Part shown: piece by piece, positions 1 to 23,729 of the stretch
Layout of the letters: each line of letters starts with the position of its first letter
How positions within the stretch are numbered: position 1 is the first letter of the stretch
Assembly: GCA_030681595.1 (NCBI GenBank)
Contig: JAUXSB010000012.1
Location: 9,377 to 73,376, forward strand
DNA length: 64,000 nt
Source of the DNA: Candidatus Omnitrophota bacterium
Lineage (GTDB): Bacteria > Omnitrophota > Gorgyraeia > Ghiorseimicrobiales > Ghiorseimicrobiaceae
Direction: 5' to 3'
The notes under the pieces: model-generated
What the model was told of the DNA's origin: nothing
Seen by the model: the letters and a program-made list of their open reading frames with translations, nothing else
Database searches by the model: none
Program-made: the position numbers and the translations under genes

Positions 1-3000
1 TGCCCCCAAGATAAACATATGGTTAGCGGTTATGTTTGTTTCCGCTACTGCTTGCGGCGTCTTAAAAGTAAACTGAATATCGCGCTGACCGGAAAAACCT
101 GCCCCGTCGCCTCTGAAATCTCTTAAGATGATGGCGCCGGCTAAATCATTTGCGCTATAATTACGGCCTCCGATGGAATATGTACCACCTCCGCCGAAAA
201 GCGAGTTAGTTATCGTGGCGCCGAAATTGTTCTTGCCAAAACCCGGGTTCACATCCAATCCGTTCGCCTCGTGGCTGAACAACGGCCTAAACCACCAATT
301 AACCCCGCCCTCTTCTCTTGGGTTTCTTGCCTCATAAAGCGCGGCACCCGCCTTGGTCATGCCTATGCCGGTGATTCCGCCTAAGTAATCCCCTAAACTA
401 TAACTATTTTTTATGCTCCCGTCGTGGAATTGCACTACTTTTTCCCCCTCTTGATTCTTCAAAATTCTCGTTCCGTTCAGGCCATCCTGTACAAATGTAT
501 ATCCTTCAGGTATAGGTGATAGATTATTATTTATAGAATATTTCATTGCCTGGTCAAAATTATCAAAAATCTTATCTTGATTATCAATTTTGAACTTACC
601 ATCTAAATAAGTAATCCCGTTTAATAATGCCGCGCTGCTGCCGGACAAATTCCCGTCAGCCTGCGGCATAATACTGTGATTCACAAGATCGGAAGCCTTG
701 GTATTTTGTAAGCTGCTGCTCCTTTGCGGGTAGAGCTTATTCATATTCTGCCAAGAACCTTTTAGATTATCCATCTGTTGTTTATCAAGCTTATCTTTAT
801 ACTTTGTTTCTAGCTCATCTACATCTTTAATCTTATCCATTTCGTCAAAAGGAAGATTGTAGCGTTGCGCAAGCGCATCAAGATATCCTTGCCTGTAATA
901 ATTTGGCTGCTGTATGTTATTTGCGCTTGAGCCTGAATAAGCCATATTGGTCTGAAGAGTATTAGTTTGTTCATAGCGTCCATTTTCAAACATAGGATTT
1001 TTAATCACGGGATTAAAAACTATGATTTTCTGATAACCCGGGCTGTTAAGATTACTAATTGTATAAATATTATTACTGCTATCCTGACGGTAACCCATTG
1101 CCGGCATGCCGAATATTTTATTGGCGTAATCGTATTTATACCCGGAAAACACATTGGAATTAATTGCTGCCTGCTGCAATAAATCCCTTGCGCCATAGTG
1201 TAAATTATCGCTTAAATACTCCATCATGGCCACGCCAAAGCCCTTAGCATGATTGGGGTCTTCTTCTGTCCCGGATGCGGCATTTTGGCCAATCATCGCT
1301 AAACCAGAAGTATAGTTATAACTTTCCCAGAGAGTAACGGGGTTTTTATCGAAATCCCTCTTCGTGTTTGCCCATGGGCTGCCAAAGCTCAAGGTATCAG
1401 TAATATATTTATCCCCGGCATCTCCCATGCTTACCAGTATCGACTGAAGGAACGAAGGATCTTTAGGTAACGAAATATCCGGAGATAATCCTTCAGTGAG
1501 TGTTGGGGAAATCTTACCTGCTCCGTAAAATGCCGCGCCTTGTATAAACGAACTAAGCATATAAGCAGTATAATTACGCCAGAAGGGATTCTCGTCTAAA
1601 TTCCACTTTTTGCCAATCGAGCTATGGCTCAACCAACTGCCTATACCGGCAGTAGCTAGAGACATTACCCCTTCAGTGACGCCTGTTTTAACCCCCTCCC
1701 ATAATATTTGCTTTTGAATATCTTTGTTCGTTACTTTATCAAACTCTATGTCGTATAAATCCTTAAAGGCATCAGTCTGGCCAATGGTCTTCCAATCTGC
1801 ATTCTTTGCCCCTGTATCTTGCGGGTTCTTTTTTAAATACTCGTCTCTTGCCCGTTCAAAGGTAATATTTGCCTTTGCCTTATCCTCTTGCTCATACGTA
1901 TTTAAACCCGCTGCCACACTATAGGCCGAACCGAAAATTGTGCCAAAGCCCATACCAACCATTGAAGAAAACGGCGAAGACTCGCTTATCCAGTTACGTT
2001 TCTTGGCATAATCCTCAATCATCCCGCCGGCAATTTTACTGACTAAATTAGGCATATTATCTACGATACCCGCCAGCCAAGCGTATTTTAGGGCACCCAT
2101 CTCTCCTGCTGCCTTATGTCCCTCCATAAGTTTTTTATATTCAGCGCTTTGCGGGTTCATATTTTTCGCCCTGTTCGCTATCGCTCCCTGCTTATTAAGC
2201 TTATATTGCTGATTACTCGGACTATCTAATAGGCCTTCCATAAGGCCTTGTGCGAACATACCGCCGACTTGCCCCAAGATATTTGATTGCCATTTACTGG
2301 TATCTTCCGGCACCCAGTTGTTCCTTCTGGCATAGTTATTAATTCCTTGCGTTACTAACCCGCTAGTAAAGCCTATGGCAAAACCCTTTCCTGTTCCGGC
2401 GTTTTTACCGCCTCCGGTATACATACTTAGGCCCATACCTAAAGCCGAGCCGAACATCTGATAGGTCTGCTGATGGCCTCCGGTAAGATATGCTAAACTA
2501 CCTGCCGCGCTTGCCAAATTACTGGAAATCATCCCACCGGCATAACCTACGGCAAGAGTACCGTAACCGCCAAAACTTGACATGAATGTTCCAGCTGCGA
2601 ACCCCCCCCGTGCATAGTTACCTAATCCGCCCATTACATAGGCCGATACAATCGAAATAGCAATATTCGTTCCTATCTTACCCCAATTCCAGTTATCTCT
2701 GCCTCCGTTGCGCTCGCGCGCTCCCAATACAGCCTTGGCTTCCTCTTCAGGAATTAAATTAAAGGCTACTGGTTTAAGATTGGAAGTAAGAATATATCCA
2801 CTAAAATTTTCTAAGAATTTTTCGCGAGGTAAGAAGGTATTGCCTTTATCATAAAAATAATAAACCTTCTCGTTATCTATTTTTGTAACCAAGACAAAAT
2901 GGCCATTTTGTTCGGGGTTCGGGGAAAGGTGCGCGATAAAAGGCGTAATTGAGTTCAGGGAGTCTATTGAGCTTATTGAATTGTTGAGTGATAATTTTGC

Positions 3001-3555
3001 CGGATAAAGCTCTAAACCGAAATATTCGGCGGTTTTATTTAAAGAGTATAAAGAATTTAAAATGGAAAAAGAATTTGTGGGACTAATATTACCCGATAGG
3101 GCATCAATCAGAATAAGCAGAGTGGACAATTCTTCTACCTTAACTTCTTTATTTTTAGCCAGTAACAAATTATATAAAACATAGGTGGAACAAGGCACAG
3201 TCTCGGTTTCTGGTTGCTTTAACCAAGAAACAAGGGATTTTATCTCATCTTTTGTCCATTTTTTGCCTTCCGGGATAGCTATCAATAGGCCGGGCTTTAA
3301 TTCAAGCTGACTTAATCTTTTATTGGCTAAGGGGGTAAGATACCGGGAAATACTCTCGGCAACCACTTTATTAAACAGCTCCGGGTAGGCAGTGATATTG
3401 GCGCCAATCTCAGCGGGCACAGAAACTCCTCCGTTTTGCCAGAGGATAGCCGGGTTATACTCTATAGCCCAGGCAACCTGCTCAGGCAAAAAAACAGCCA
3501 CTACTAAAAGCGCGATGGCCTTAACCCATTTGTGCCTACGCCAGTTGGTTAACAT
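1..3555 (-). CDS. Very large secreted protein, partial (runs off the window start, >1180 aa). N-terminal signal peptide, then a C39-like papain-fold cysteine peptidase domain, then a long Gly/Ala/Ser/Asn/Tyr-rich low-complexity region.
   Basis: Minus-strand ATG at 3555..3553 opens a frame with no stop through position 1 (spot-checked at several places). N-terminus MLTNWRRHKWVKAIALLVVAVFLPEQVAWA looks like a signal peptide. Candidate catalytic Cys in ETVPCSTYVLYNLL and His in NGHFVLVTKIDNEKVYYFYD resemble the C39/PF13529-like family. Downstream are many GG/GY/SS-rich repeats. Confidence 0.6.
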   Translation of the reverse strand, partial: MLTNWRRHKWVKAIALLVVAVFLPEQVAWAIEYNPAILWQNGGVSVPAEIGANITAYPELFNKVVAESISRYLTPLANKRLSQLELKPGLLIAIPEGKKWTKDEIKSLVSWLKQPETETVPCSTYVLYNLLLAKNKEVKVEELSTLLILIDALSGNISPTNSFSILNSLYSLNKTAEYFGLELYPAKLSLNNSISSIDSLNSITPFIAHLSPNPEQNGHFVLVTKIDNEKVYYFYDKGNTFLPREKFLENFSGYILTSNLKPVAFNLIPEEEAKAVLGARERNGGRDNWNWGKIGTNIAISIVSAYVMGGLGNYARGGFAAGTFMSSFGGYGTLAVGYAGGMISSNLASAAGSLAYLTGGHQQTYQMFGSALGMGLSMYTGGGKNAGTGKGFAIGFTSGLVTQGINNYARRNNWVPEDTSKWQSNILGQVGGMFAQGLMEGLLDSPSNQQYKLNKQGAIANRAKNMNPQSAEYKKLMEGHKAAGEMGALKYAWLAGIVDNMPNLVSKIAGGMIEDYAKKRNWISESSPFSSMVGMGFGTIFGSAYSVAAGLNTYEQEDKAKANITFERARDEYLKKNPQDTGAKNADWKTIGQTDAFKDLYDIEFDKVTNKDIQKQILWEGVKTGVTEGVMSLATAGIGSWLSHSSIGKKWNLDENPFWRNYTAYMLSSFIQGAAFYGAGKISPTLTEGLSPDISLPKDPSFLQSILVSMGDAGDKYITDTLSFGSPWANTKRDFDKNPVTLWESYNYTSGLAMIGQNAASGTEEDPNHAKGFGVAMMEYLSDNLHYGARDLLQQAAINSNVFSGYKYDYANKIFGMPAMGYRQDSSNNIYTISNLNSPGYQKIIVFNPVIKNPMFENGRYEQTNTLQTNMAYSGSSANNIQQPNYYRQGYLDALAQRYNLPFDEMDKIKDVDELETKYKDKLDKQQMDNLKGSWQNMNKLYPQRSSSLQNTKASDLVNHSIMPQADGNLSGSSAALLNGITYLDGKFKIDNQDKIFDNFDQAMKYSINNNLSPIPEGYTFVQDGLNGTRILKNQEGEKVVQFHDGSIKNSYSLGDYLGGITGIGMTKAGAALYEARNPREEGGVNWWFRPLFSHEANGLDVNPGFGKNNFGATITNSLFGGGGTYSIGGRNYSANDLAGAIILRDFRGDGAGFSGQRDIQFTFKTPQAVAETNITANHMFILGA

Positions 3556-3608: not shown

Positions 3609-3647
3609 TAACTTTACATTTTAAGCAATGCTTGAAATGTAAAGTTA
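3609..3647. repeat. Solo copy of the 37-39 bp palindrome (stems AACTTTACATTT / AAATGTAAAGTT) that also flanks the Y1 transposase at 13617 and 14578.
   Basis: Read directly in the sequence. Near-perfect hairpin with a single central mismatch, lying in the gap between the giant gene and the Flp gene. Confidence 0.85.
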
Positions 3648-3676: not shown

Positions 3677-3859
3677 TTACTGGACAACTGTCACCCCTGT
3701 CTCATATTGTTCGCCTGAGCCGAAAACATCCGCGCCTTGGCGAAGCTTGCCTTGCACGCTAAAAGAAAGATACCTAAACATTACCGTACATGCCGCAACC
3801 GTCGCGGCAATTAAAAGCGCGTATTCCATTATAGACATAGCACGCCTGTTATTTCTCAT
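3677..3859 (-). CDS. flp: Flp/Fap-family type IVb pilin (60 aa)
   Basis: MRNNRRAMSIMEYALLIAATVAACTV: a basic N-terminus, the EY motif and a hydrophobic helix typical of Flp prepilins. Confidence 0.6.
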   Translation of the reverse strand: MRNNRRAMSIMEYALLIAATVAACTVMFRYLSFSVQGKLRQGADVFGSGEQYETGVTVVQ

Positions 3860-4730
3860 AATAATTTACCCCAATAATTACGTAACCCTCTTTACTTGGA
3901 TCTTTGGTTACAGTAACCATACAGCTTTTATAATAGCCCTGAAAAGTTAAGCCTCTGTTTTCCGGATCTAAAAGGCCTTTGATATCTTTTAGCTTTGAAG
4001 AAAGTTTCTCCGGAAAGTCAGCAAAATTCATCTCATCCTTCAACTGCCAATTATAATATGGCATATTCTGGCGGTAGAAATCCAGTACCTCCTTACTATT
4101 AGCCTGCGCTGTATAAACTAACGTCGCCCTCTTTTTAGGATGTTCATTAATAACAGAATTAATCCTGACTGCCCCGCGATAGCGGGGAACTGAATCCAAG
4201 TCCTTGCCGGGGGTATCCTCTTTAAAAAGCTTACTTTCCATTAGATTATCCTTGCACCCTGCTTTAGATCCAGGGGTTATGCCTTCCGGATTATCTGCTT
4301 TAGATTTATCCGCTTTTTCTACGGCAGCCCTGGTATCTGGATAGAGCATCGATTCTTTTTCTCTTATAGTCTGGGTTACCATAATCGCCGCACCTTTCGC
4401 GGCATTCTGTATAGAGATAACGGCAACCTTATCTTTCCTGAAAAAACTCATTAGCCCATAGCCGGATTCGTTCTTAGACATAAGTTCTTCCCAGCCGGAA
4501 TTAACCATTTGAGTTTTATAAAAATCAAATACCTCGTCCGGCTGAGCATTGTTTTTATAAAGAGTAACCTCTGCGGGATGTGCATTTACTTGTAACTCTT
4601 GTTTTCTCTCTATAGTGCTGCCGGGTAAAACAGGGATACTTTCCCATGCCGCCGCCTCGCTAAAAGCACCCATGGCGATTAAACTGCAAACTATAAGTCC
4701 TAAACTATAAACCAATTTTTTCATTGTCAA
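3849..4730 (-). CDS. Secreted protein of unknown function (293 aa) containing an internal duplication
   Basis: Signal peptide MTMKKLVYSLGLIVCSLIAMGAFS. Two related segments (EVTLYKNNAQPDEVFDFYKTQMVNSGWEEL and ATLVYTAQANSKEVLDFYRQNMPYYNWQL). Located inside the pilus gene cluster. Confidence 0.6.
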   Translation of the reverse strand: MTMKKLVYSLGLIVCSLIAMGAFSEAAAWESIPVLPGSTIERKQELQVNAHPAEVTLYKNNAQPDEVFDFYKTQMVNSGWEELMSKNESGYGLMSFFRKDKVAVISIQNAAKGAAIMVTQTIREKESMLYPDTRAAVEKADKSKADNPEGITPGSKAGCKDNLMESKLFKEDTPGKDLDSVPRYRGAVRINSVINEHPKKRATLVYTAQANSKEVLDFYRQNMPYYNWQLKDEMNFADFPEKLSSKLKDIKGLLDPENRGLTFQGYYKSCMVTVTKDPSKEGYVIIGVNYYEK

Positions 4731-4741
4731 CTCTCATTTCT

Positions 4742-5791
4742 TTAATTAAGCCCTTGCGCGTCTGTACTAATTAACTGCGACTCATAAGTATCGCTAAAGC
4801 TCCCCACAGAACCTCCGTCAGTTATGGCGCGGGACACAGAACGGATGCCTCCCCCGGTATTTGGGTCTGTGTAGCGCATATTCCAAATTCCTAAATCTTT
4901 GCTTGGCTGGTCGCGGGTTACCTTAACCGTTATTTCAGGTGCGTATTCGGAGTTGAAATCCAGATCTGCCATAGCGACAACAGGACAAGGAAGATAGGAG
5001 AAAGCCGTAACCCAGTTCCCGCAAGCACATACACCTGTTAGGGTACACATATTGGCGAAGCACACAACAGCACAAGCCAAACACACTCCAACAGAAATAA
5101 CACAAGCCGGGGGAGGGGCAGCAACAACCCAATACCAATAAACTGGAACAAGGAGACCGGGTATCATCGGTATCATTGGCACATCAGGCGCATCTACGTC
5201 TATAGTTAGGGTATTTGTCCTTCCATCCGCAGCCTGCCAAGAATAAGGGCTAAGTGAACCGGCATCGCAATCTTCGTCTTCCAAACAAGTCTGAAGCGGG
5301 CTTTTTCTTTGCAAATATTGGGCATAGGTCTCGCCCCAGTTCCTTGCTTTACCTTCAGTTATGTTAGCGTTGCTAAAGGCCGACTTATACGCCTGATTCT
5401 CCGCCATCTCATAGCCGTCTTCCAATGTTTTTATCGCAGAAGCATAAAGCATTGCCTCTGCCGCGATAAAGGAAAGCCATAACACGTACATCATTGTAGG
5501 GTATGCACAAAGATACCAAGGAATAACGAGCATGGCGACTTGTGTTTCAACATATGATTCAGCCATCTGGGAATTGATATCCACAAGGGCGTTCAAGGTA
5601 TTATTATGTATGGTAGCGCCTGCTAATGCGCCGGCATCCGCGGCATTGCCGGTATTGGTCTTGGTTAAACCGACCTTGCCCAGATTTACCGCCACCATCA
5701 TCGCCATAATCAAGACCACGATTACGGCAATCATAAATGGCGTAACCTGCCCGCTTCTATAACGTAATCTTAATACTGCTGTGCCGCGCAT
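4742..5791 (-). CDS. TadG-like pilus assembly protein (349 aa) containing an unusual cluster of 11 Cys residues
   Basis: TadG-type N-terminus GQVTPFMIAVIVVLIMAMMVAVNLG. Cys-rich hydrophobic stretch ACVISVGVCLACAVVCFANMCTLTGVCACGNWVTAFSYLPCP. Confidence 0.6.
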   Translation of the reverse strand: MRGTAVLRLRYRSGQVTPFMIAVIVVLIMAMMVAVNLGKVGLTKTNTGNAADAGALAGATIHNNTLNALVDINSQMAESYVETQVAMLVIPWYLCAYPTMMYVLWLSFIAAEAMLYASAIKTLEDGYEMAENQAYKSAFSNANITEGKARNWGETYAQYLQRKSPLQTCLEDEDCDAGSLSPYSWQAADGRTNTLTIDVDAPDVPMIPMIPGLLVPVYWYWVVAAPPPACVISVGVCLACAVVCFANMCTLTGVCACGNWVTAFSYLPCPVVAMADLDFNSEYAPEITVKVTRDQPSKDLGIWNMRYTDPNTGGGIRSVSRAITDGGSVGSFSDTYESQLISTDAQGLN

Positions 5792-6618
5792 TTATCCCTC
5801 TCTGCCTGTGCCTGAAGAAGTAAATTTGTGGCATCTGCCCTTATCGCATTGCCTTTATCTCGTTCTAACTGAGCATCTATACGTTTCTGCAGGGCCTGCT
5901 GAAGTAATTGTTGTTCAAGTGCCCGATACTTAACTTCTTCATTCAGATAGTAATCCCGTTGGCCTATCCAGTAATCCCTTTGACTAGAATAACTAGAACA
6001 GTCGCAATAACCGCAACCATTCATACAAGTAGCGTATAAACTCGCCCAGTAATTGGCTTCACTATTTGCGTTGTTTGCCTCCGCTGCGTAATAATCTGCT
6101 TGTGCTCCATACACAGCTGCCTGTTGCTCTAATAGGTATGCGTCTAAATCTAACAGCGCCGCGTTATAATCATATTTGGCAGCATCTATGTTCATTTGGC
6201 TAACCTGCGCCTCCAAAGCTGTGGCGGCCGGGCAAGGATCAGCCGCTCCACCTCCTCCGTCGCCTCTGCCGCCCCCTGTGCCTGAGCCAGGAGTATAAGT
6301 TCCGGGTGAGGGGAAATTTTTTCCTTTTAACACCCAATCTTCATTTAACTGCCTGCGTGCGTATACCGGCCACTTCCCCGGAGCAGTATTACTTCCCGCG
6401 TCCAGCCGCGAAGCAACAAACGGGGGTTCCTTCTCCACAAGTTCATTGTTATACCAGACCCCGATACGCACTGCTCCAGCAATAAAGAAAATAAGCGCTA
6501 CTAAAGCAAGGGCCATTTCTAAAGTTACCTGCCCGCCAATGCTTTGTGGCGTGGCCTGCCCGCGCCTGCAGGTTGCTCTTTTGTAATCTAAATCTTTTAA
6601 CTTATAATTCATAACCAC
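5770..6618 (-). CDS. TadE-like pseudopilin (282 aa) with a Gly-rich segment and an Ala/Gln/Tyr-rich coiled-coil-like C-terminus
   Basis: TadE-like N-terminus GGQVTLEMALALVALIFFIAG, followed by GTGGGRGDGGGG and then repeated AA/QQ/YY motifs. Confidence 0.6.
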   Translation of the reverse strand: MVMNYKLKDLDYKRATCRRGQATPQSIGGQVTLEMALALVALIFFIAGAVRIGVWYNNELVEKEPPFVASRLDAGSNTAPGKWPVYARRQLNEDWVLKGKNFPSPGTYTPGSGTGGGRGDGGGGAADPCPAATALEAQVSQMNIDAAKYDYNAALLDLDAYLLEQQAAVYGAQADYYAAEANNANSEANYWASLYATCMNGCGYCDCSSYSSQRDYWIGQRDYYLNEEVKYRALEQQLLQQALQKRIDAQLERDKGNAIRADATNLLLQAQAERDKCAAQQY

Positions 6619-6624
6619 CCATTA

Positions 6625-7212
6625 TTAATGTAACGTTGCCCAGGTTCTTCCTTTGGTTATCGATGTACCTGCGGCTGACTGCCTGTATCTGCCATCCGTA
6701 TCTAATCCTTGGGTATAGGTAAAAACCGAGCCGTCTTCTGCTAAAAGCCGGGTAGTAATTGTATCTCCCAGCGTTGCTTGACGATTGGTACTGCTCTGGA
6801 CATTACTCTCTGTCTTTATGTCCGTAGAATTATAAGCCGTATTGGCATCTGTTTCTACATTCCATATTTTTTTATCATTAGGGATTGTGAACAGATCTTC
6901 ATTTATCTGATAGAAAGTGAATTCGTTCGGCTCGCCAAAAGACCAAAGCACGCTTGCGCTAGCACTTACGCTTTGCCTATTACCCTGCTTAAAACCGCCG
7001 AATAAATTGGGGCCCCTATAATTTTTAATAATCGTATAGCTCACACTTCCGTTGTTATCGTATGCCTTTTGTAGCGCCATACGGAATGCCTGCTGCTGTA
7101 GGGTCGTCTGCTCCGTCATATTATTGGCAAAAGAAATTAAAAGCCCTAAAGCAACCATAACCATAGAGCCGAATACCGCCAACTCTGTAGCCGCCTGCCC
7201 CTTTTTTTTCAT
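6625..7212 (-). CDS. TadE/TadF-like pseudopilin (195 aa)
   Basis: MKKKGQAATELAVFGSMVMVALGLLISF matches the TadE-like N-terminal domain. Confidence 0.65.
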   Translation of the reverse strand: MKKKGQAATELAVFGSMVMVALGLLISFANNMTEQTTLQQQAFRMALQKAYDNNGSVSYTIIKNYRGPNLFGGFKQGNRQSVSASASVLWSFGEPNEFTFYQINEDLFTIPNDKKIWNVETDANTAYNSTDIKTESNVQSSTNRQATLGDTITTRLLAEDGSVFTYTQGLDTDGRYRQSAAGTSITKGRTWATLH

Positions 7213-7258
7213 CTTATTTTTAAAATTCCTCTTTCACACCCCCGCGGTGTGAAGTTTT

Positions 7259-7624
7259 TTAATTTATATTGGTATCGGTAGTAGTCTCTGTAATAGGCAG
7301 CAGATCTGGAAACTGGTCATCGTTTATGGAATATTCTGTTGCCGTGCGCGTTTGCGTATCTGAAGCTGTCTTTGTCGTACTTCTGCCTGCTATGGTTTCA
7401 ACCTGCGGCGGCCTGATTATATTAACTACTGCGGTAGAGGCCGTTTCCATGTTGGCATACTCATACTGTGTCGGCCCGATAAAAGACTTAGTCATATCCC
7501 TTACCCGCCCCTGTATCCCCCTTTTAATATAAAAACTCATCGCTAGCAACGCCGCGGAAACTATGCTTAAGATAATCGCGTACTCTGCTAAACTTTGCGC
7601 TTTCCTTCTTGCGATAAACATCAT
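7259..7624 (-). CDS. flp: Long-form Flp-type pilin (121 aa) with a Ser/Thr-rich C-terminal tail
   Basis: QSLAEYAIILSIVSAALLAMSFYIKRGIQGRVRD, followed by a Thr/Ser-rich tail. Confidence 0.7.
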   Translation of the reverse strand: MMFIARRKAQSLAEYAIILSIVSAALLAMSFYIKRGIQGRVRDMTKSFIGPTQYEYANMETASTAVVNIIRPPQVETIAGRSTTKTASDTQTRTATEYSINDDQFPDLLPITETTTDTNIN

Positions 7625-7645
7625 CTTTACCCCCCGCGCGCCCTT

Positions 7646-7933
7646 TTAAGGAGCAACTACCGTTTCGCTAGTGGTACGAAACTTTGTATCGGTAGTGTTA
7701 GTTGTCGTTAAACCCGAGCTGGTGGTTTCGCTAATTTGTAAATTCTGCGTATTAGTCGTGCTTGACGAAGTGCTCCCAATGGCATACTTCGGGCCTATCC
7801 GTTCGCTATAGGCCCGAAGCCTGCCCATCATGCTGCGCTTTACGTAAATCTGCATCATCACTAAAGCGGCAACAATCGCCGCTAACAGCAGACTTACTTC
7901 CAGCATATTTTGTGCCCTGCGAATATTTTTCAT
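7646..7933 (-). CDS. flp: Long-form Flp-type pilin (95 aa) with a Ser/Thr-rich tail
   Basis: MKNIRRAQNMLEVSLLLAAIVAALVMMQIYVKRSMMGRLRAY, then STSSSTTNTQ... Confidence 0.7.
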   Translation of the reverse strand: MKNIRRAQNMLEVSLLLAAIVAALVMMQIYVKRSMMGRLRAYSERIGPKYAIGSTSSSTTNTQNLQISETTSSGLTTTNTTDTKFRTTSETVVAP

Positions 7934-7957
7934 ATCTCATATCCGCTTAAACAATTG

Positions 7958-8045
7958 GCCAGAAGGCCATGGTTTGGCTTTCCATATAGCCAAAGCCATA
8001 AGCCAGAAGGCCATGGTTTGGCCTCCTAATTGACCAAAGCCATTA
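7958..8045. repeat. Rep-A: two tandem 44-bp imperfect palindromic units (GCCAGAAGGCCATGGTTTGGC...GCCAAAGCCAT)
   Basis: Read directly. The same family occurs at 23730, 34333 and 34688, and inside the CDS at 12061-12112. Confidence 0.85.
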
Positions 8046-8049
8046 CTGG

Positions 8050-8403
8050 TTACCATGCGGTAGTCTTTAACACCTCACCTGATCCCCAAGCACCTAACGT
8101 TGTGTCGTCCGTCCTGATATTAGTCTCTGTTACTGTCACATTTGACCCCTGAACACCACTACCTCCGACCGAGTCACCGCTTGCCGATTCCAGAGACGAA
8201 CCGCCGCTCGAATAAGTAATTGTCCCGGAATAGGCCACTGGGTCAAACTGCTCTCCGATGTCATCGGCAGAAGACTTTATCCTGCCGCCAACGCCGCGTT
8301 TAAGATATATCTGCATCATTATAAGTGCGCCGACAATCGCCGCGATAACTAAGGCATATTCCAAAGTACTCTGACCTCTTAATCTTTTAAGCATTTTTTT
8401 CAC
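8050..8403 (-). CDS. flp: Long-form Flp-type pilin (117 aa)
   Basis: Canonical Flp motif MKKMLKRLRGQSTLEYALVIAAIVGALIMMQIYLKRGVGGR, then a Ser/Gly/Thr-rich tail. Confidence 0.75.
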   Translation of the reverse strand: MKKMLKRLRGQSTLEYALVIAAIVGALIMMQIYLKRGVGGRIKSSADDIGEQFDPVAYSGTITYSSGGSSLESASGDSVGGSGVQGSNVTVTETNIRTDDTTLGAWGSGEVLKTTAW

Positions 8404-8454
8404 CTCCTTAAAATTAAACTCTCTAATCCTTAAATCGTTTTTCCTTCTTGCTTT

Positions 8455-8814
8455 TTAGTCTGCTACGATTCCGGTATACACATCCGAGCTGCCTGCGTCT
8501 CTGCCTACGTTCGTAGAAAGAGCTGTATTCTGCCTGCCGCCCCTACCGGCAAACGTGCTGCCGCCGCTAGATGAACGCGAAGTCGTAACTGCGGAAACCT
8601 GGTTACGCAGATAATAGGGCTCATATTGTTCGGTAGTGCCTATCACGGCACCATCCGCATTCGTAGCCATATACCGCGTCGCGTCGTGATACCTTCCCTG
8701 CAACCCACGTTTAATATAAACCTGCATAGCAATAAGTGCGCCTATAACTATCGCGATTACTATCGCGTATTCTGCTGTTGACTGACCTTTGATTTTTCTG
8801 AACATTTTCTTCAC
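8455..8814 (-). CDS. flp: Long-form Flp-type pilin (119 aa)
   Basis: MKKMFRKIKGQSTAEYAIVIAIVIGALIAMQVYIKRGLQGR, then a Ser/Thr/Gly-rich tail. Confidence 0.75.
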   Translation of the reverse strand: MKKMFRKIKGQSTAEYAIVIAIVIGALIAMQVYIKRGLQGRYHDATRYMATNADGAVIGTTEQYEPYYLRNQVSAVTTSRSSSGGSTFAGRGGRQNTALSTNVGRDAGSSDVYTGIVAD

Positions 8815-8858
8815 CTCCCTTAATTTAGATATTCCTCTCTCGCATTATCTGATAGCGA

Positions 8859-9023
8859 TTAAAAGGTTACCCCGGCTGTCGCATTCGTTAGAGCACCAGC
8901 TGTAGCGGTCATGTTACTTTGTACCGCGGTATTGATAACCGTCTTTCCTATAACAATTGCCGCTATAATCGCTGTCAGGATAATCACGTACTCCAGCGTA
9001 CTCTGACCCTTTATCCTTCTCAT
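8859..9023 (-). CDS. flp: Short classic Flp pilin (54 aa), absent from the ORF track
   Basis: Hand translation: MRRIKGQSTLEYVIILTAIIAAIVIGKTVINTAVQSNMTATAGALTNATAGVTF. A GGGGTG ribosome-binding site lies 6-12 nt upstream. Confidence 0.7.
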   Translation of the reverse strand: MRRIKGQSTLEYVIILTAIIAAIVIGKTVINTAVQSNMTATAGALTNATAGVTF

Positions 9024-9054
9024 CTTCACTCACCCCCTTTCTTTTTTATTAAAT

Positions 9055-9225
9055 TTACTTGACGCTTACGCCCGGCTCAGGAGATTCATATATCTCATCC
9101 TGTACCTGTTTGAGCCGCGAGTTCATAGCCCGGTAAACATATGTAGACATAGCTATCAGCGCCGCTGACACTAGCGCCACAAGAACCGTATATTCTACTA
9201 TGCTCTGGGCTTTATTTTTTCTCAT
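9055..9225 (-). CDS. flp: Short Flp pilin (56 aa), absent from the ORF track
   Basis: Hand translation: MRKNKAQSIVEYTVLVALVSAALIAMSTYVYRAMNSRLKQVQDEIYESPEPGVSVK. An AAGGAG ribosome-binding site lies upstream. Confidence 0.7.
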   Translation of the reverse strand: MRKNKAQSIVEYTVLVALVSAALIAMSTYVYRAMNSRLKQVQDEIYESPEPGVSVK

Positions 9226-9368
9226 GACAAAAGACTCCTTACCGCGCTCTGGAAATGAGTTTCAAATATCGCGCGCGCAGCAGGGATAAACCCTACTGCC
9301 GCCGCTATTATAACCGTGAAAATAACCGCGTATTCTACTATTGTCTGAGCTCTTTTATAATTATTCAT
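9222..9368 (-). CDS. flp: Short Flp pilin (48 aa), absent from the ORF track
   Basis: Hand translation: MNNYKRAQTIVEYAVIFTVIIAAAVGFIPAARAIFETHFQSAVRSLLS. The start lies 1 nt after the tadC stop. Confidence 0.65.
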   Translation of the reverse strand: MNNYKRAQTIVEYAVIFTVIIAAAVGFIPAARAIFETHFQSAVRSLLS

Positions 9369-9369
9369 T

Positions 9370-10275
9370 TTACAACCCCATGCCTCCGCCGCTGCCGCGC
9401 AAGAACTGTAAAAGTACCGGGCCGCCTACAATAACCATAACCACCGGCAGGATAAACACCATCAAAGGGAATAACAGCTTTACCGGCGCCTTAAAGGCCA
9501 TTGCCTCGCCTCTCTGGAAACGCCGCACGCGCAATTCTTCCGCCTGTATTTCAAGCGCCTCGCCCATGGGAGAACCCATTTTATCCGCCTGAATAAGCGT
9601 CCGGACAAAAGAGGTTGTCTCCGGCAGGTTTACTCTCCATGACAGATTCTGCAATGACTGCTTGCGGCTCCTGCCTATCTGGCTTTCCCTCCACATCTCC
9701 GATAATTCATCACGCAGCGGGCAGGGCTTAAAATCCTTCATCACGCGGCTTACCGCCAGCATAAAATCCAGGCCGGCGTTAACGCACAAATGCAAGAGAT
9801 CGATAACATTAGGCAAATCCTTGATTATTTCATTCTGGCGTTTGGTAATTTTCTTTTTTAGCCACATATCCGGATAAAAAAAAGCCAGAAATCCGGCTAC
9901 AATAATAAAATTCGGCTTGGTAGAAAATATAATTGAACCGAATAATAGGGCGGATAAAACACAGAGCAATTTAAAAGAAACAAAATCGAGTAAAGTCATT
10001 ACTCCGCCGGCAGAAAGTAATGCCCTTTTTAGCGGTTCTTGTTTAATATAAGGCAATGCCTTTGCCGATATCGGTTCCATAAATCTCAGGGCCTTTTTAA
10101 GCAGATTACGCTGCTGCTTCTTTTTCTTGGCTACCTCAGCCGCTTCTTCCTCCGGCAGGCGCAAAAATAATTCCTCTTTTTGAGCAACAAGCTGCTGTAC
10201 TACTAAAAACACGCTCCCGAAAATCAACGCCATATATACGTAATGAAATACTGATGTGTCCACCTTACACCTCAA
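9370..10275 (-). CDS. tadC: TadC-like inner-membrane pilus assembly protein (T2SS-F domain)
   Basis: 301 aa with multiple transmembrane segments. C-terminal FKAPVKLLFPLMVFILPVVMVIVGGPVLL is typical of TadC/GspF-fold proteins. Confidence 0.75.
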   Translation of the reverse strand: MRCKVDTSVFHYVYMALIFGSVFLVVQQLVAQKEELFLRLPEEEAAEVAKKKKQQRNLLKKALRFMEPISAKALPYIKQEPLKRALLSAGGVMTLLDFVSFKLLCVLSALLFGSIIFSTKPNFIIVAGFLAFFYPDMWLKKKITKRQNEIIKDLPNVIDLLHLCVNAGLDFMLAVSRVMKDFKPCPLRDELSEMWRESQIGRSRKQSLQNLSWRVNLPETTSFVRTLIQADKMGSPMGEALEIQAEELRVRRFQRGEAMAFKAPVKLLFPLMVFILPVVMVIVGGPVLLQFLRGSGGGMGL

Positions 10276-11473
10276 TCTTGCTTAATTTAACGATTAAAAA
10301 TGCCCCTATAATCTCTGAGACCACAGAATAAACAATTAATCCCTGCCCTATTTTATCTTTAAGCATCATTTCAAAAAATTGTGGGTTAAATCCGGCGACC
10401 ATCATCGCAAAAGCTATAGGCAGGAATATCATGATAATGCCTTGTAATTTTGCCTGCGTACAGAGAGACTTAACCCTGCCGATAAGTTTATTTTTCTCGC
10501 GAATCGTAAAATTTAACTGCGAAAATGTGCGCGTTAAATCGCCGCCGGTTTCACGCGCTACTAATATCGCGGTAACCACTAAATCCAGTTCTTCAATTTT
10601 AAGCCTGTCCTTAAGATGCACAAAGGTTTCTTCCAGCGGAACACCCATGCGGTTCTCCCGTACCAGCAGGTTTAATTCCTGCGATATCGGCTGCGGCATC
10701 TCCAGTACCACTTCTTCGATTGACTGAATCAAGCTTAAGCCCGCCTTCAAAGAACTGGAAAGGATCATAAGCGCGTCGGTTAATTGCGCCCTGAACATAT
10801 TCCGGCGCCTTGCTTCTATCTGTTTAAGCGTAATCGCCGGCAAAACTGAAGCAATGCCTGCGCCAATAACCAAGCCTAATATAATATTGCGGCATATTAT
10901 TATAAATACCAACCCTAACACAACTACCGAGATAAGATACATATGAAAGAGGCGCTGAGATGGGATTTCAATAAAAATAGCGCTTAATCTATGCGACATT
11001 TTGTCTAACGCCGCCGATTTCGGAGCAGGGATTTTATTTAAATACTCACTATAAGCGTCTAAAAAGCTTAGTGCTGTTTTCTTGGTTTCAACCGTAGGCT
11101 CGGCCTCAACCTGAGGCTGAGACTGAGGAACGTTTTTGTTTTTGTTGTAGGCGTTTTTAATATTACTAAAAATTGTGTTTATGCCTTTGTAGATATTCTC
11201 CAGTATTACAAACTTTTTAGGGGCCTTAGCATCCTCTTCTTTTTGAGGAACGTTTTTGTTTTTGTTATAGGCGTTTTTAAGATTACTAAAAATTGTGTTT
11301 ATGCCTTTGGAGATATTCTCCAATATTACAGACTTTTTAGCGGCCTTAACAACCTCTTCTTTTTTAAGTACGGCTTCACCGGCAGCTGTGGGTAAAGACG
11401 CGGCCATTGGCGAAGCAGCTGGCTTCGTCATTTTAAATTTTTCAAGGCTTTTGAATAGCTTTATAAAACTCAT
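10265..11473 (-). CDS. tadB: TadB-like pilus assembly protein (T2SS-F domain) with an N-terminal extension made of a tandem 40-aa repeat
   Basis: The C-terminal ~300 aa are TadB-like (IPSQRLFHMYLISVVVLGLVFIIICRNI...). The N-terminal 100 aa hold two copies of ILENI(S/Y)KGINTIFSN(L/I)KNAYNKNKNVPQ. Confidence 0.7.
   Translation of the reverse strand: MSFIKLFKSLEKFKMTKPAASPMAASLPTAAGEAVLKKEEVVKAAKKSVILENISKGINTIFSNLKNAYNKNKNVPQKEEDAKAPKKFVILENIYKGINTIFSNIKNAYNKNKNVPQSQPQVEAEPTVETKKTALSFLDAYSEYLNKIPAPKSAALDKMSHRLSAIFIEIPSQRLFHMYLISVVVLGLVFIIICRNIILGLVIGAGIASVLPAITLKQIEARRRNMFRAQLTDALMILSSSLKAGLSLIQSIEEVVLEMPQPISQELNLLVRENRMGVPLEETFVHLKDRLKIEELDLVVTAILVARETGGDLTRTFSQLNFTIREKNKLIGRVKSLCTQAKLQGIIMIFLPIAFAMMVAGFNPQFFEMMLKDKIGQGLIVYSVVSEIIGAFLIVKLSKIEV
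11125..11364. repeat. Tandem 2 x 120-bp direct repeat inside the tadB coding region
   Basis: The two copies are about 95% identical and in-frame, so they encode the 40-aa protein repeat. Confidence 0.85.
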
Positions 11474-11765
11474 TTTAAATACTCCAAAAAAAAATCCGGA
11501 TTACTCAAAACCTGACTTTCATCGGCTTTCGGTAACCCGGTCAACAAAATCTAGAAATACACAAACAGCTTAAAAATCAGAAATTATCTGTAGCTGTTTC
11601 TGCGTTCCTAATTATTGACATCTATATTTTGTCCCGTGGCTTTGCTCACTCCGCCTAAAGCATCGGAGTTCGCCTTTATCGTTGCCGTGCTTCTAATTAC
11701 AATTAAAATATACCCTAAAATCTCCCCTTTGTCAATATATTTTTTTTAGGCTTTTGCAAACGTTT

Positions 11766-13346
11766 TCAGGCTTTTTTTACTTTTAAAATCAACCTTTTCC
11801 CTAAAAACATTAGGCTGCTTTCATTGATTCTTTCTGCGGCATAATACAGCGATTCCAGAGCCCCTTTATCCTGCTGATCAGCGTGAGGGGACAATTCAAG
11901 CGAAATTAAGTCTCGTTCCATACTCCTTTGGCCTGCCAATTCGTATAATACCCGCTTCAGCTGTAAAAAATCCCAAGATTGACATTCGCCAGGCAAATAA
12001 CGCTGTTTAACGTAAGTATTAAGATTATCCCTTGCTAAATTGAGTATTTTATCCAATTCATTAAGCCGGTAAGGCAACGGTTTGGCTTTCCATATAGCCA
12101 AAGCCATGATATTAATATAGTTATGATAAATAAATTGGGGCGGTTGGGAGAAACCATTAACTATATAGGCAAAGGAATCCCACGGTTTAAGCCAGCGCCT
12201 TAAATATAAGGCCGCCACATCCTCTTTTGATTTCTCCTGAGTAGCAAAATTGGTAGCGAGAAGCACCCCTTGCTTAACGCCAGGCCCTTCTTTTAACAGG
12301 ACGCATCTTAATTTAATCTCTTGTGAAACAATGAGTTGTGGAAAAATAACTTCTCCTTCTTGAACAGAATATTCCTTTGCGTTTATAGGCGCCGTTATTG
12401 CTTTAATCGGCGGGAAAAGCTTAATTCTCAGGCGCGCCTGCTGAGTGGGAAATAAACCAAAAATAAAATTTCTTTTTACGGCCGGAATATAAACAATCTT
12501 TTTCAACTCTTGCCCCAATCCATGAATCACCATGCGAGAAATGCTTTTTGATTCCGCTCCTTGACAGGAAAGGATAAAATTCGCTGTCTCCGGCCCTATA
12601 TTTTTAGCTAAAGAAAGTAAAATTATCGGCTGTTTAGCCTCTAAAATAGTATTTTTTATATAACTATCTGTAAAACAATGGCTTACGGATAAATTATCCG
12701 GGATATCAGCTGAAGGCCAAAGTGCTCTAAACTGGGGGTCAATATAAAAAATACTGCCGTCAATTAAGCCAAAATGTAAATTTTTTGCTAATTTAATCTC
12801 TAATTTTTCGGCTAATTTGGTTTTATCGCAGGACTGCATCCTTGCGTTTAAATCGTTTGCTAATTTGGCTAACGAGGCTGGATTAACTCTGCCACCAGTC
12901 ACCTCCCATAATCCTTGCTTATCGTAACTACTTAATTTATCGATAGTTAAATCAAATAATGGCAGATATAACAACGTGCGTAAGCCTGGGGCAATCTTAC
13001 CCATTTTTCGGCTTGGCTTTTCGCAAAATAAACCTTGGATTAATCTATCCACTAGGCCTAATTCGTTCTCCGCGGCAGCCAAAATAAATACCCCTGCACG
13101 GTCTAATATTATTTTATTATCTTTAAGAGTAAGATTTGTACCTTTCGGGCGGGATCGTGCTCTTCCTACTTTACTGCTTAAACCAGCTTGTTTTATAATC
13201 TCATTAACCCCTGATTTGGAAACATTAATTTTAAACTTTTTAAAAACAAGTTCGCTAATCTTACGGCAACTCAAAAATGAGGAAGCCTTCTTTTGTTCAA
13301 GAATAAAGCTTATAATTTTATCAGTAATTTTATATATTACGCCCAT
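11766..13346 (-). CDS. Putative DDE transposase (526 aa), tentatively of the IS4/IS1634 type
   Basis: N-terminal HTH-like region. YLRRW near the C-terminus resembles the Y-x2-R-x3-E-x6-K signature region of IS4-type transposases. Lies next to the RAYT element in an AT-rich insertion. Tentative. Confidence 0.35.
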   Translation of the reverse strand: MGVIYKITDKIISFILEQKKASSFLSCRKISELVFKKFKINVSKSGVNEIIKQAGLSSKVGRARSRPKGTNLTLKDNKIILDRAGVFILAAAENELGLVDRLIQGLFCEKPSRKMGKIAPGLRTLLYLPLFDLTIDKLSSYDKQGLWEVTGGRVNPASLAKLANDLNARMQSCDKTKLAEKLEIKLAKNLHFGLIDGSIFYIDPQFRALWPSADIPDNLSVSHCFTDSYIKNTILEAKQPIILLSLAKNIGPETANFILSCQGAESKSISRMVIHGLGQELKKIVYIPAVKRNFIFGLFPTQQARLRIKLFPPIKAITAPINAKEYSVQEGEVIFPQLIVSQEIKLRCVLLKEGPGVKQGVLLATNFATQEKSKEDVAALYLRRWLKPWDSFAYIVNGFSQPPQFIYHNYINIMALAIWKAKPLPYRLNELDKILNLARDNLNTYVKQRYLPGECQSWDFLQLKRVLYELAGQRSMERDLISLELSPHADQQDKGALESLYYAAERINESSLMFLGKRLILKVKKA

Positions 13347-13616
13347 TTTAGCTTATATATAAATGGCCAAACAGATTTTTCTATTAGATTGGACATTTAT
13401 ATATAGTAATTCCTTGAAAAACATGTTGTTATGCTAATAGATACATTAAATTTGGACATTGATTTAATCATTATAGTTGTATTTTAATTTATTATCTTAA
13501 TCTATCGCTTTAATTTTCACTGCCTCTTTCCTAAAATATACTATACGCGCATAGAGCAGCATATACCCCACATCTGTATATACCCCGCATGGAGAGCTCT
13601 TATATGTAAACCTGAT

Positions 13617-14614
13617 AACTTTACATTTTAAGCATTGCTTAAAATGTAAAGTTATTTTGTCAAATTAAAGGCCTTACTTATGGTAACGCGGGATTGACCT
13701 AAAATAGCTGCAATTTCACCTATTTTATAACCATTAGCTCTTAATTGCTTAATCAGAAACTCCCTTGCTTTGATATCCTGCGGCGATCTCAACCGTTGCT
13801 TCCCTTCCATCTTTTCCAAATAAGCTTCTATTTCTTTATCCGCTAACATGCCTTTTGAGGCCGCGATATCTCCTTCTTCTCCTATAACAATTCTTAACGA
13901 TTTAAGCAATTTAGCCCTAAAACTGACTAAATCAGCTTTCCCTCCTCTAGAAATATTTACTTCTACAGACAACATACTGCTTAATAAACGCTGGTAAATG
14001 CTCCTGGCGTTTTCTAAATCCGCGGCTAAAGGCCTTAAGAGGTATTCATATCTTACAAATGTTTCTTTATTCATATTATCCACATATAGATTTAACGACG
14101 ACCATCTGTAAGGTTTCTCTGCCCCGGCTAACCCGGCTTTATAGGGGTTAAGGTGAATGTAAATTGATGCTGCTAACGCATAGCTATCATCTAAACACAA
14201 GGATTGCCTGAATGCGCCGCAAAATACATGCCCTTTTCTGCTGTATTTTTTGTTAAAATATCTCGCGTAAGACTGGAACAAGTTCTGCATTGCCTTGGGT
14301 AAATTTACCTTATTTATCCTCAAAAGTAAATGCAGATGATTTGACATCAGGCACAAAGCAAATACATCTAATTCAAATTTCTTAGCGCAGTCTTTTAACT
14401 GGCCTAAAAAATATAGATAATCACTGTCTTCTAAGAATAAGGGCTCGCTGCCGCAGGAGTGTTGAGTCAGGTGGGAAATAGCGCCGGTAAAATTTAGTTT
14501 GTTCCTTGCTAAGAAAATACGATTTATTTTATTCTGCTCGGCCAAATCTATTATGTCCATTGTGCGCATTGTACAATAACTTTACATTTTAAGCAATGCT
14601 TAAAATGTAAAGTT
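13617..14614. mobile_element. IS200/RAYT-like unit: a Y1 HUH transposase gene flanked on both sides by identical 37-bp palindromes
   Basis: Palindromes at 13617-13653 (perfect AACTTTACATTTTAAGCA T TGCTTAAAATGTAAAGTT) and 14578-14614. They sit 8 bp from the transposase start and overlap its stop codon. Confidence 0.75.
13652..14569 (-). CDS. Y1 (HUH) tyrosine transposase, IS200/RAYT family, with a C-terminal HTH extension (305 aa)
   Basis: HuH motif SNHLHLLL. Conserved YFNKKYSRKGHVFCGAFRQS block comparable to the RAYT consensus GHLWQGRF(K/Y)S. C-terminal GYKIGEIAAILGQSRVTISKAF is HTH-like. Confidence 0.7.
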   Translation of the reverse strand: MRTMDIIDLAEQNKINRIFLARNKLNFTGAISHLTQHSCGSEPLFLEDSDYLYFLGQLKDCAKKFELDVFALCLMSNHLHLLLRINKVNLPKAMQNLFQSYARYFNKKYSRKGHVFCGAFRQSLCLDDSYALAASIYIHLNPYKAGLAGAEKPYRWSSLNLYVDNMNKETFVRYEYLLRPLAADLENARSIYQRLLSSMLSVEVNISRGGKADLVSFRAKLLKSLRIVIGEEGDIAASKGMLADKEIEAYLEKMEGKQRLRSPQDIKAREFLIKQLRANGYKIGEIAAILGQSRVTISKAFNLTK

Positions 14615-14960
14615 ATTTGATAATAGAGAGCTGACCGCCGATAGAAAGGGAGAATTTCTCGATTGTGCCCGCAGGTAATTCGACAGCGCATTTTGCGCCA
14701 AAGGCAGATAAAACAAACTTAAAAGGCGTAACATTGCTGCTTAATTTTAATATCCTATTCTGGCTATCCAAGAATATAATATCTATAGAAAAGCGCATAA
14801 AAAAGGTATGCAGGGAACTGGCAGGCTTAATTATTAAAGCGGTTGAGGCATCTAAGGAGTCGCGGAATAAAAGGCCCTTCATCCTGCTAAAAAAATTATC
14901 AGCGAATTCGGCATGTTCGGCAATTATTACTTTCGTATCCGGATTAATTATTTTATACAT
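14613..14960 (-). CDS. DUF192 family protein (about 115 aa counted from the internal Met)
   Basis: MYKIINPDTKVIIAEHAEFADNFFSRMKGLLFRD...FFMRFSIDIIFLD...AVELPAG matches the DUF192/COG1430 pattern. The ORF track extends it upstream into the cpaEF stop. Confidence 0.65.
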   Translation of the reverse strand: MYKIINPDTKVIIAEHAEFADNFFSRMKGLLFRDSLDASTALIIKPASSLHTFFMRFSIDIIFLDSQNRILKLSSNVTPFKFVLSAFGAKCAVELPAGTIEKFSLSIGGQLSIIK

Positions 14961-14970
14961 TGCGGGGTTT

Positions 14971-17154: not shown

Positions 17155-17194
17155 CTTCTATCTGAGCCCGCCTTATTAAATACCACGCTTAGGC

Positions 17195-18739: not shown

Positions 18740-18742
18740 TTT

Positions 18743-19732: not shown

Positions 19733-19735
19733 TAC

Positions 19736-23724: not shown

Positions 23725-23729
23725 ACTAT

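Follow-up and report, generated by a model that had tools for sequence, protein, structure and literature searches.

The window analysed in this work, i.e., the whole stretch of 64,000 nucleotides from a Candidatus Omnitrophota bacterium (GenBank assembly GCA_030681595.1, contig JAUXSB010000012.1, positions 9,377 to 73,376 of the forward strand), very probably harbors at its left edge, on the reverse strand, the 5' end of one of the "giant" or "very long protein" genes of Omnitrophota, coding for a signal peptide followed by a peptidase domain of the C39 family and located downstream of a locus resembling tight adherence (Tad) and type II secretion systems (T2SS). The best explanation of the data as a whole joins this identity to a mechanism in which the exported peptidase might process the long polypeptide to which it belongs; taken together, the two appear likely. 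The features recognized within the gene are the following (residue numbers refer to its product):

1..3555, reverse strand: 5'-terminal 1,185 codons of the giant gene, whose length is at least 4,310 codons (open frame and identity to the contig L001 and the protein P0015, introduced below)
3466..3555, reverse strand: predicted Sec signal peptide, residues 1-30 (read from the sequence and from hydropathy)
2770..3264, reverse strand: C39-family papain-like cysteine peptidase domain, about residues 98-262 (Pfam, AlphaFold2, Foldseek, and profile)
3190-3192, 2899-2901, and 2848-2850, reverse strand: codons of Cys122, His219, and Asp236, respectively
2719..2754, reverse strand: conserved double-glycine-leader-like motif IPEEEAKAVLGA, residues 268-279 (alignment; candidate cleavage site)
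1066..2703, reverse strand: Gly/Ala-rich, weakly hydrophobic, predicted all-helical module, residues 285-830 (composition, hydropathy, and a low-confidence AlphaFold2 model)
1..1065, reverse strand: start of a non-repetitive, cysteine-free, lineage-specific body, residues 831-1185, which continues for >3,100 residues past the window

The frame read from 3555 to 1 opens with ATG and runs unbroken through 1,185 codons to the window edge, the other two frames across the same stretch being dense with stops; since an in-frame stop is located two codons 5' of the ATG at 3555, this ATG is the earliest possible start. A Logan contig (L001), reached via the neighbouring gene at 4742-5791 and 100% identical to the window over 8 kb, carries the frame on to 2,568 residues, where it is still open, and an exhaustive HMMER search with residues 287-1185 as the query retrieved a protein of 4,310 residues (P0015) that is 100% identical to the product of the window. 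The latter is NCBI MDP1853265.1, automatically named "C39 domain-containing protein, partial", from a Candidatus Omnitrophota metagenome-assembled genome (MAG), on a 74,658-bp contig. As this record is partial, the gene being cut by the contig end, 4,310 residues represent a lower bound; 12.9 kb of the gene are known, and no longer copy was found. A previous sequence-only reading of the window had reported an open reading frame (ORF) of more than 1180 residues running beyond the window edge, which agrees with these data, and had pointed to an internal stop or frameshift as what might break it into pieces: neither is present over the 4,310 codons.

The named database homologues (n = 30) all belong to Omnitrophota/Omnitrophica, apart from one MAG labelled Dehalococcoidales. 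Similarly, five of the seven GTDB loci with a C39-led frame are labelled Omnitrophota, and in six of the seven the frame is still open after 3,400-3,680 residues. Some "short" C39 homologues look complete at 900-1,800 residues. As for P0004 (1,396 residues; metagenome contig L011, 14150-14260), the stop after residue 1,396 derives from a 22-bp tandem duplication, in which TACCTACAAAGGTAAATCTCCG occurs twice; a 99.8%-identical GTDB genome (L006) lacks the duplication, and its P0004-type frame continues past 3,605 residues. It follows that a database entry for a "short" C39 protein can be either a fragment of a giant gene produced by a frameshift or an artefact of assembly.

The N-terminus of the protein, which reads MLTNWRRHKWVKAIALLVVAVFLPEQVAWA/IEYNP (the slash marking a putative cleavage after A30), looks like a cleavable Sec signal peptide: a basic n-region (RRHKWVK) precedes an 11-residue h-region (AIALLVVAVFL) and a helix breaker (P24), and A28-W29-A30 meets the -3/-1 rule. 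An A/S/V-x-A site is kept at the equivalent position among the homologues, and the signal segment is the most hydrophobic stretch (Kyte-Doolittle 2.08). A signal peptide had already been indicated by the sequence-only reading, and that call is retained. It is known that the canonical C39 domains of ABC exporters are cytoplasmic; in this case, because of the predicted N-terminal Sec signal peptide, the peptidase domain would act outside the cytoplasm.

The domain that follows has the fold of the C39 family and an intact Cys122/His219/Asp236 set, Cys122 being located within TVPCSTYVLYNLL and His219 within NGHFVLVTKIDNEKVYYFYD. Pfam Peptidase_C39 (PF03412) is matched over residues 168-258 (E = 7.5e-10; 39.2 bits, the family threshold being 22), and a precomputed match to the same family is present on most homologues. 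The AlphaFold2 model, built on a 15-sequence alignment, has a predicted local distance difference test score (pLDDT) of 85-95 across residues 55-280. When it was compared with the PDB using Foldseek, the top matches were PCAT1 (6v9z, 7n87), ComA PEP (3k8u, 5xe8), and the nuclear magnetic resonance structure of PCAT1 PEP (E 1e-4 to 3e-3), with a template modelling (TM) score normalised by target of 0.65-0.75 for PCAT1/ComA and of 0.75 for the ComA peptidase domain; a papain-like toxin (9l5u) was also matched, in the same range of E values. The 15-sequence family profile retrieved the LahT150 double-glycine protease (6mpz, E 0.0027), weakly on the Cys side, and aligned Cys122, His219, and Asp236 with its catalytic residues. 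Within the 15 sequences, which share 30-50% identity, Cys122 and His219 are invariant and residue 236 is always D or E. Other searches gave negative results: phmmer with residues 1-300 against the PDB sequences returned chance Hsp90 matches alone (E 0.25), a 5-sequence profile (A2) had no match in the same PDB sequences, and the NCBIfam scan of the giant protein recovered no family. The sequence-only reading had assigned the domain to C39/PF13529 and had indicated a candidate Cys and His. The assignment to C39 is borne out by PF03412, the fold, and the catalytic residues, whereas PF13529 has to be given up, the closest Pfam family being PF03412; the two residues had been correctly chosen, and homology to a peptidase fold, on which that reading depended, was found with the PCAT1/ComA/LahT150 domains.

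The C39 domain ends with FSGYxL, after which a linker of variable length leads to G278-A279, i.e., to the end of a motif with the pattern E-x3-[VI]-x-G-A (here EAKAVLGA, residues 272-279). In the 15-sequence alignment, G278 and A279 are invariant and E272 is conserved in at least 90% of the sequences; the motif is kept in 22 of 24 sequences, and L007 has GG. Counting from the candidate site, E272 is at -8 and hydrophobic residues occupy -4 and -12, as in double-glycine leaders, and double-glycine leader peptides are the natural substrates of C39 enzymes. The sequence past the motif cannot be aligned, two alternative module types beginning directly after it, and in the AlphaFold2 model a pLDDT of 80-87 over residues 261-280 is followed by a fall to about 35. 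On the basis of this pattern, we infer that the cleavage site of the protease itself would lie after G278-A279, and self-processing of the giant protein seems plausible. The possibility that the motif recurs through the body, chopping the protein into pieces, was also considered and rejected, the number of double-glycine-type motifs in the body not being above chance (two observed vs. 1.5 expected; strict form, one vs. 0.39).

According to the proposed mechanism, residues 1-30 would act as a Sec signal peptide and the C39 domain would be catalytically active, its likeliest substrate being the double-glycine-type motif I268-x3-E272-x3-V276-x-G278-A279, located 20-27 residues past the domain end; a cut after A279 would detach the protease module from the remaining chain. 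This self-cleavage step is advanced tentatively. Omnitrophota are ultra-small, uncultured, and probably predatory or parasitic bacteria, whose huge genes are thought to encode an attachment or attack apparatus. The cut might represent a maturation or release step of an envelope or surface protein serving for attachment to, or attack on, other cells, a role that the literature has already proposed for such proteins in Omnitrophota.

A possible, if rather doubtful, alternative is that the exported C39 domain acts in trans, on the envelope or pilus apparatus of the cell itself or on host or prey proteins, or that it cuts at many internal sites, rather than performing a single cut in cis after A279. 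Both possibilities are raised in the part of the work of West-Roberts et al. considered here (bioRxiv 10.1101/2023.11.21.568195), the catalytic residues are intact, and toxin activity is known for a papain-like C39-type domain of similar structure (9l5u). However, the double-glycine-type motifs in the body do not go beyond chance, the neighbouring small proteins carry class-III (Flp-type) leaders and not GG leaders, and in the surroundings of the domain no short motif is conserved other than the one that immediately follows it.

The body of the protein is non-repetitive, fast-evolving, and, apart from the catalytic residue, free of cysteine. It had previously been described as about 900 residues of low-complexity, repetitive, Gly-rich sequence, a description that does not hold: the Shannon entropy per 60-residue block is 3.7-4.05 bits, near that of ordinary globular sequences, with residues 301-360 (3.21 bits) as the exception, and a strongly Gly-rich stretch is limited to about residues 290-410, the composition of residues 286-1185 being G 12%, A 8.6%, N 8.3%, S 7.9%, and Y 5.1%. 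The repeat analysis that had been suggested disclosed no internal repeats, since self-BLAST of the 2,568-residue version (E<=10) returned the identity match alone and Tandem Repeats Finder detected no repeat scoring above 52. Over the whole 4,310 residues, the Pfam scan recovered the C39 domain (residues 168-258) and TPR repeats (about residues 3,696-3,754) and nothing else.

In most homologues, the protease is followed by a Gly/Ala-rich region of about 450-530 residues ending in a [LM]HYxA[VIR] motif, which is found about 380-535 residues past FSGY in 10 of 14 database homologues. The copy of this motif in the present protein is LHYGAR (LHYGA core at residues 785-789) and ends the Gly/Ala-rich module, whose similarity to the other modules is weak (10 bits with a high compositional bias in a leave-one-out hidden Markov model). 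The hydropathy scan disclosed weak hydrophobic segments at residues 294-312 and 533-551. AlphaFold predicted residues 280-830 (11-sequence alignment) to be all-helical, with a mean pLDDT of 48.9; because of this value the model is too poor for a fold search, and nothing was drawn from it. The module is probably helical and possibly membrane-associated. In an exhaustive representative search with residues 287-1185, the sole collinear relative was P0016 (Omnitrophota), with 41% identity from residue 994, and a word-indexed search with residues 1186-2568 against a 5.8-billion-protein index gave no further homologue. Beyond the window, P0015 has a cluster of hydrophobic, Gly-rich segments at residues 3,028-3,484, and its TPR repeats are followed by a long tail, the last 500 residues being Lys/Glu/Leu-rich and probably forming a coiled coil. 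This suggests that, in its far part, the protein may associate with a membrane for a second time and may end in a scaffold located in the cytoplasm or periplasm.

These data bear on the idea that the protein is a repetitive, fibrous, low-complexity adhesin, an S-layer protein, or a pilus-associated fibre with a protease head, for which its size, its export signal, its place after the pilin genes, and its moderate Gly/Asn/Ser content might speak; moreover, an adhesive role of Omnitrophota giant proteins has been proposed in the portion of PMC10066038 taken into account. The idea is nevertheless unlikely, since no repeats are present in the DNA or in the protein, the entropy is near that of ordinary globular sequences, adhesin, S-layer, and pilin domains were not detected, the N-terminus is of the Sec type rather than of the class-III/Flp type, and the later hydrophobic cluster, the TPR repeats, and the probable coiled coil do not fit a simple fibre. 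The S-layer and pilus-subunit interpretations put forward from the sequence alone find no support, as neither a pilin-type N-terminus nor an S-layer or Tad-component domain is present.

Cys122 is the sole cysteine in the 4,310 residues (0.02%), versus a content of 1.04% across the other 32 ORFs of the window; a similar depletion of Cys is seen in the homologues, yet every one of them that covers the start of the domain keeps Cys122. A lone conserved cysteine in a Cys-poor protein fits an exported protein with a functional thiol, and it counts against a non-catalytic C39-like domain of the type found in the HlyB exporter of RTX proteins, whose role would be to bind or chaperone the giant chain, still unfolded, while it is secreted. 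Protease-inactive C39-like domains are known in the type I secretion of very large proteins, as stated in the excerpt considered of bioRxiv 10.1101/2023.11.21.568195, and the canonical oxyanion Gln is not clearly conserved in the present family. Such a role is nonetheless very unlikely, given that neither Cys122 nor His219 varies among 15 divergent sequences (30-50% identity), that HlyB-type domains are devoid of this Cys whereas here a polypeptide otherwise free of cysteine has retained the catalytic one, and that an ABC transporter is neither fused nor adjacent (no ABC_membrane or ABC_tran domain was found in the 4,310 residues nor in the neighbouring genes).

The third element of the proposed identity is the locus upstream of the giant gene, whose components, together with the palindrome located between it and the giant gene, are the following:

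3677..20722, reverse strand: complete Tad/T2SS-like locus, on the same strand as the giant gene and upstream of it (Pfam and NCBIfam scans, ORF translations, and the gene table of L001)
19736-20722, reverse strand: SurA-like peptidyl-prolyl isomerase (PPIase; Rotamase_2)
18743-19732, reverse strand: RcpC/CpaB
17195-18739, reverse strand: secretin with a C-terminal TonB_C domain
14971-17154, reverse strand: fusion of a ParA/MinD-like (TadZ/CpaE-like) domain with a T2SSE ATPase, 727 residues
14613-15035, reverse strand: DUF192
9370-11473, reverse strand: two T2SSF genes
3677-9368, reverse strand: about nine tandem Flp-like small genes, 48-195 residues, with class-III-type leaders
4742-6618, reverse strand: TadE/G-like genes
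3849-4730, reverse strand: AF_1845-like gene
3609..3647: 39-nt palindrome, with arms of 19 nt, that separates the giant gene from the last Flp-like gene (copy of the repetitive extragenic palindrome, REP, type)

The last Flp-like gene (3677-3859, reverse strand) precedes the giant gene on the same strand, as had been noted from the sequence alone. Ten loci have usable upstream sequence (window/L001, L002, L003, L004, L005, L008, L009, L011, L012, and L013). In all ten, T2SSF pairs and/or genes of the TadE/G type precede the C39-led ORF by no more than 10 kb on its own strand, and the synteny is held at 30-50% protein identity despite the rearranged internal order of the Tad genes. The giant gene is thus linked to the Tad genes beyond chance, and the check for co-occurrence with Tad loci that the sequence-only reading had called for disclosed the same arrangement throughout. 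The giant protein itself matches no Tad, TadE, Flp, or T2SS family in the Pfam and NCBIfam scans, and its N-terminus is of the Sec type and not a class-III (G/xxxxEY) prepilin leader, in accordance with the previous statement that it resembles no described Tad component. That the two are mere neighbours, their adjacency having no functional meaning, is extremely improbable: a REP hairpin and a spacer of about 120 nt do part the giant gene from the last Flp-like gene, and unrelated Fic, OprB, and Y1 transposase genes are interposed between the T2SSF and C39 genes in L012, but the same-strand downstream place recurs in 10/10 loci at 30-50% identity and with a rearranged Tad order, and the arrangement has been independently published, as far as the passages considered of bioRxiv 10.1101/2023.11.21.568195 and 10.64898/2026.06.07.730766 are concerned.

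Some observations weigh against the explanation given above, i.e., an Omnitrophota giant gene whose product might be processed by its own exported C39 domain. The calls on the signal peptide and on topology were made by eye and from Kyte-Doolittle hydropathy alone. The PF03412 match spans the His half of the domain only, the Cys half being assigned through the fold and a weak profile alignment, and the canonical oxyanion Gln is not obviously conserved (a Q is present at -8 here and is absent in the PCGSKAL subfamily). At the position of the motif, L008 has G-R. Finally, the known 4,310 residues, which stop at the contig end, are far below the >30,000 residues of the published "giant" set, and the enzyme, SecA, and dockerin domains typical of published giants were not detected in them.

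Export and maturation of giant polypeptides in Omnitrophota represent the question on which this locus bears. It might even be imagined, as a rather improbable extension, that signal peptide, exported C39 domain, and conserved Gly-Ala/Gly-Gly motif make up a self-cleaving maturation module, by which very long polypeptides would be passed on to the neighbouring Tad/T2SS-like secretin system and be displayed on the surface or released. In that case, the giant proteins of Omnitrophota would represent a new kind of cargo dependent on Tad, with a double-glycine protease acting in cis outside the cytoplasm.

As regards the upstream locus itself, the about nine Flp-like genes represent an unusually large pilin or pseudopilin set; their leaders follow the pattern [KR][GA]/Q[ST]xxEY, then a hydrophobic helix. 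No match to the prepilin peptidase (A24) family was found among the larger ORFs at 3.6-20.7 kb. The C39 domain was considered as a stand-in for this enzyme and rejected, because the pilin leaders are class-III ones, cut on the cytoplasmic side, whereas the C39 domain follows a Sec signal. The ParA-like/T2SSE ATPase fusion is also present in L011. In the middle of the locus, an ORF of 526 residues (11766-13346, reverse strand) has no Pfam or NCBIfam match, and L011 harbors an unannotated 514-residue gene at the equivalent position after DUF192. Divergent from the locus, a FIST-domain protein, a histidine kinase, and a GGDEF response regulator (21011-24774, forward strand) form a cyclic di-GMP (c-di-GMP) signalling module adjoining the cluster of pilus and giant genes.

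The palindrome had been indicated as a solo element preceding the giant gene; its position (3609-3647) is correct, but it is not solo, since three copies are present in the window. Identical 13-mer arms recur at 13616-13654 and 14577-14615, and these two copies tightly flank, inside the Tad locus, a transposase ORF (13652-14569, reverse strand) of the IS200/Y1 type (Pfam Y1_Tnp, 4.3e-9), which also matches the NCBIfam REP-associated tyrosine transposase (RAYT) at 1e-13, below the cut-off of that family. As RNA, the 3609-3647 palindrome would form a hairpin of -27.8 kcal/mol (z -3.5). The whole looks like a RAYT with its own REP sequences plus one dispersed REP copy before the giant gene. In L012, a Y1_Tnp gene is located just 5' of the C39 gene.

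Elsewhere in the window, a NifU/IscU-like scaffold gene (54609-56165, reverse strand) is apparently split by an intein with a LAGLIDADG homing endonuclease (Pfam NifU_N, Intein_splicing, and LAGLIDADG_3), and Rfam recognized a 6S RNA gene (57909-58065, reverse strand) and six tRNA genes (20755-20829, 27810-27976, 29339-29409, 41082-41164, and 43249-43319). The remainder is represented by ordinary chromosomal housekeeping genes (GlmS, GltX, subunits of PFOR, i.e., pyruvate:ferredoxin oxidoreductase, Dxs, XseA, RNase Y, and PheT).

The comparison with known systems starts from the C39 domains of PCAT1, ComA, and LahT (MEROPS C39, PF03412), with which the present domain shares the fold (TM 0.65-0.75), the positions of Cys, His, and Asp, and, as a candidate substrate, a motif of the Gly-Gly/Gly-Ala type in which E occupies position -8 and positions -4 and -12 are hydrophobic. 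It differs from them in that it is not fused to an ABC transporter and follows a Sec signal, being predicted as extracytoplasmic rather than cytoplasmic; in the Cys-to-His spacing, which is about 97 residues vs. about 80 in canonical C39 domains; in the candidate motif, which is C-terminal to the protease in the same chain and not in a separate small peptide; and in the canonical oxyanion Gln, not clearly matched here. The C39-like domain of the HlyB type has in common with it a C39 fold tied to the secretion of a very large protein; however, that domain belongs to the transporter and has no catalytic Cys, whereas the present one belongs to the cargo and has an invariant Cys and His.

MARTX toxins are repeat-rich, multi-thousand-residue proteins, within which a cysteine protease domain (C80) is switched on by a host cofactor. 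They resemble the present protein as secreted polypeptides of several thousand residues with their own cysteine protease for self-processing, and they differ from it in the protease family, its internal position, the activation by a host cofactor, and the repeats, no homology having been detected. In Pseudomonas, LapA is a repeat-rich RTX adhesin with type I export, and LapG is a separate periplasmic cysteine protease (BTLCP/C93). Likeness to this pair, by analogy only, would lie in the control of a giant surface protein by a periplasmic cysteine protease cutting a small-residue dipeptide near the N-terminus, and in c-di-GMP genes nearby, whereas in the present case the protease is of the C39 family and forms part of its own candidate substrate, next to a Tad/T2SS-like machine.

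The closest comparison is with the giant proteins already described for Omnitrophota, in the parts of the relevant works considered here. West-Roberts et al. (bioRxiv 10.1101/2023.11.21.568195) reported, in giant genes of this phylum, an N-terminal C39 domain near signal peptides and, upstream, a T2SS/Tad-like locus in which gspD/E/F and rcpC are accompanied by a Rotamase_2 PPIase and by numerous small genes whose signals are of class III, and suggested that C39 may cut the giant protein or other substrates. A cluster of 24 proteins with a PF03412 architecture among the long proteins of Omnitrophota, and pilus or secretion genes flanking 13/14 giants, were reported in bioRxiv 10.64898/2026.06.07.730766, and Seymour et al. 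(PMC10066038) connected a lifestyle of predation or parasitism with Tad complexes and giant ORFs. The class described in these works (bioRxiv 10.1101/2023.11.21.568195, PMC10066038, 10.64898/2026.06.07.730766) is of the "archaeovorin" type, its type example being a protein of 39,678 residues from Velamenicoccus archaeovorus LiM. The length criteria vary, from an ORF of >20 kb (PMC10066038) to >90 kb (West-Roberts et al., bioRxiv 10.1101/2023.11.21.568195), and to >=10,000 residues in a plot of bioRxiv 10.64898/2026.06.07.730766.

As far as these passages go, the present gene shares with that class the phylum, the signal peptide followed by C39, a secretion/pilus locus directly upstream, comprising a Rotamase_2 PPIase, RcpC, a secretin, GspE/F-like proteins, and small genes with class-III signals, a poorly conserved and mostly unannotatable body, and GGDEF signalling genes nearby. 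As a difference, the glycosyl-transferase/hydrolase, SecA-DEAD, dockerin, and TSP3 domains were not detected in the 4,310 residues known here. Downstream PilZ genes are a further feature of the class, and the known sequence ends inside the gene. Since the window repeats the published layout gene for gene, it represents another member of the described class, and the novelty implied by the sequence-only reading has to be withdrawn: an N-terminal C39 domain with an upstream Tad/T2SS-like locus had already been described for Omnitrophota giants in those passages, and the protein is auto-annotated at NCBI. What is added here is the conserved motif after the protease and the recognition of the palindrome as what looks like a REP copy of a RAYT located in the Tad locus; the motif and the single cysteine are not mentioned in the passages on Omnitrophota giants covered here. 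Within the known class, this gene stands as a compact and clean example, in that its leader is short, its start codon is unambiguous, and its known product has one cysteine only, and it offers the testable idea that the N-terminal protease of these proteins may cut a conserved double-glycine-type site located just after itself.

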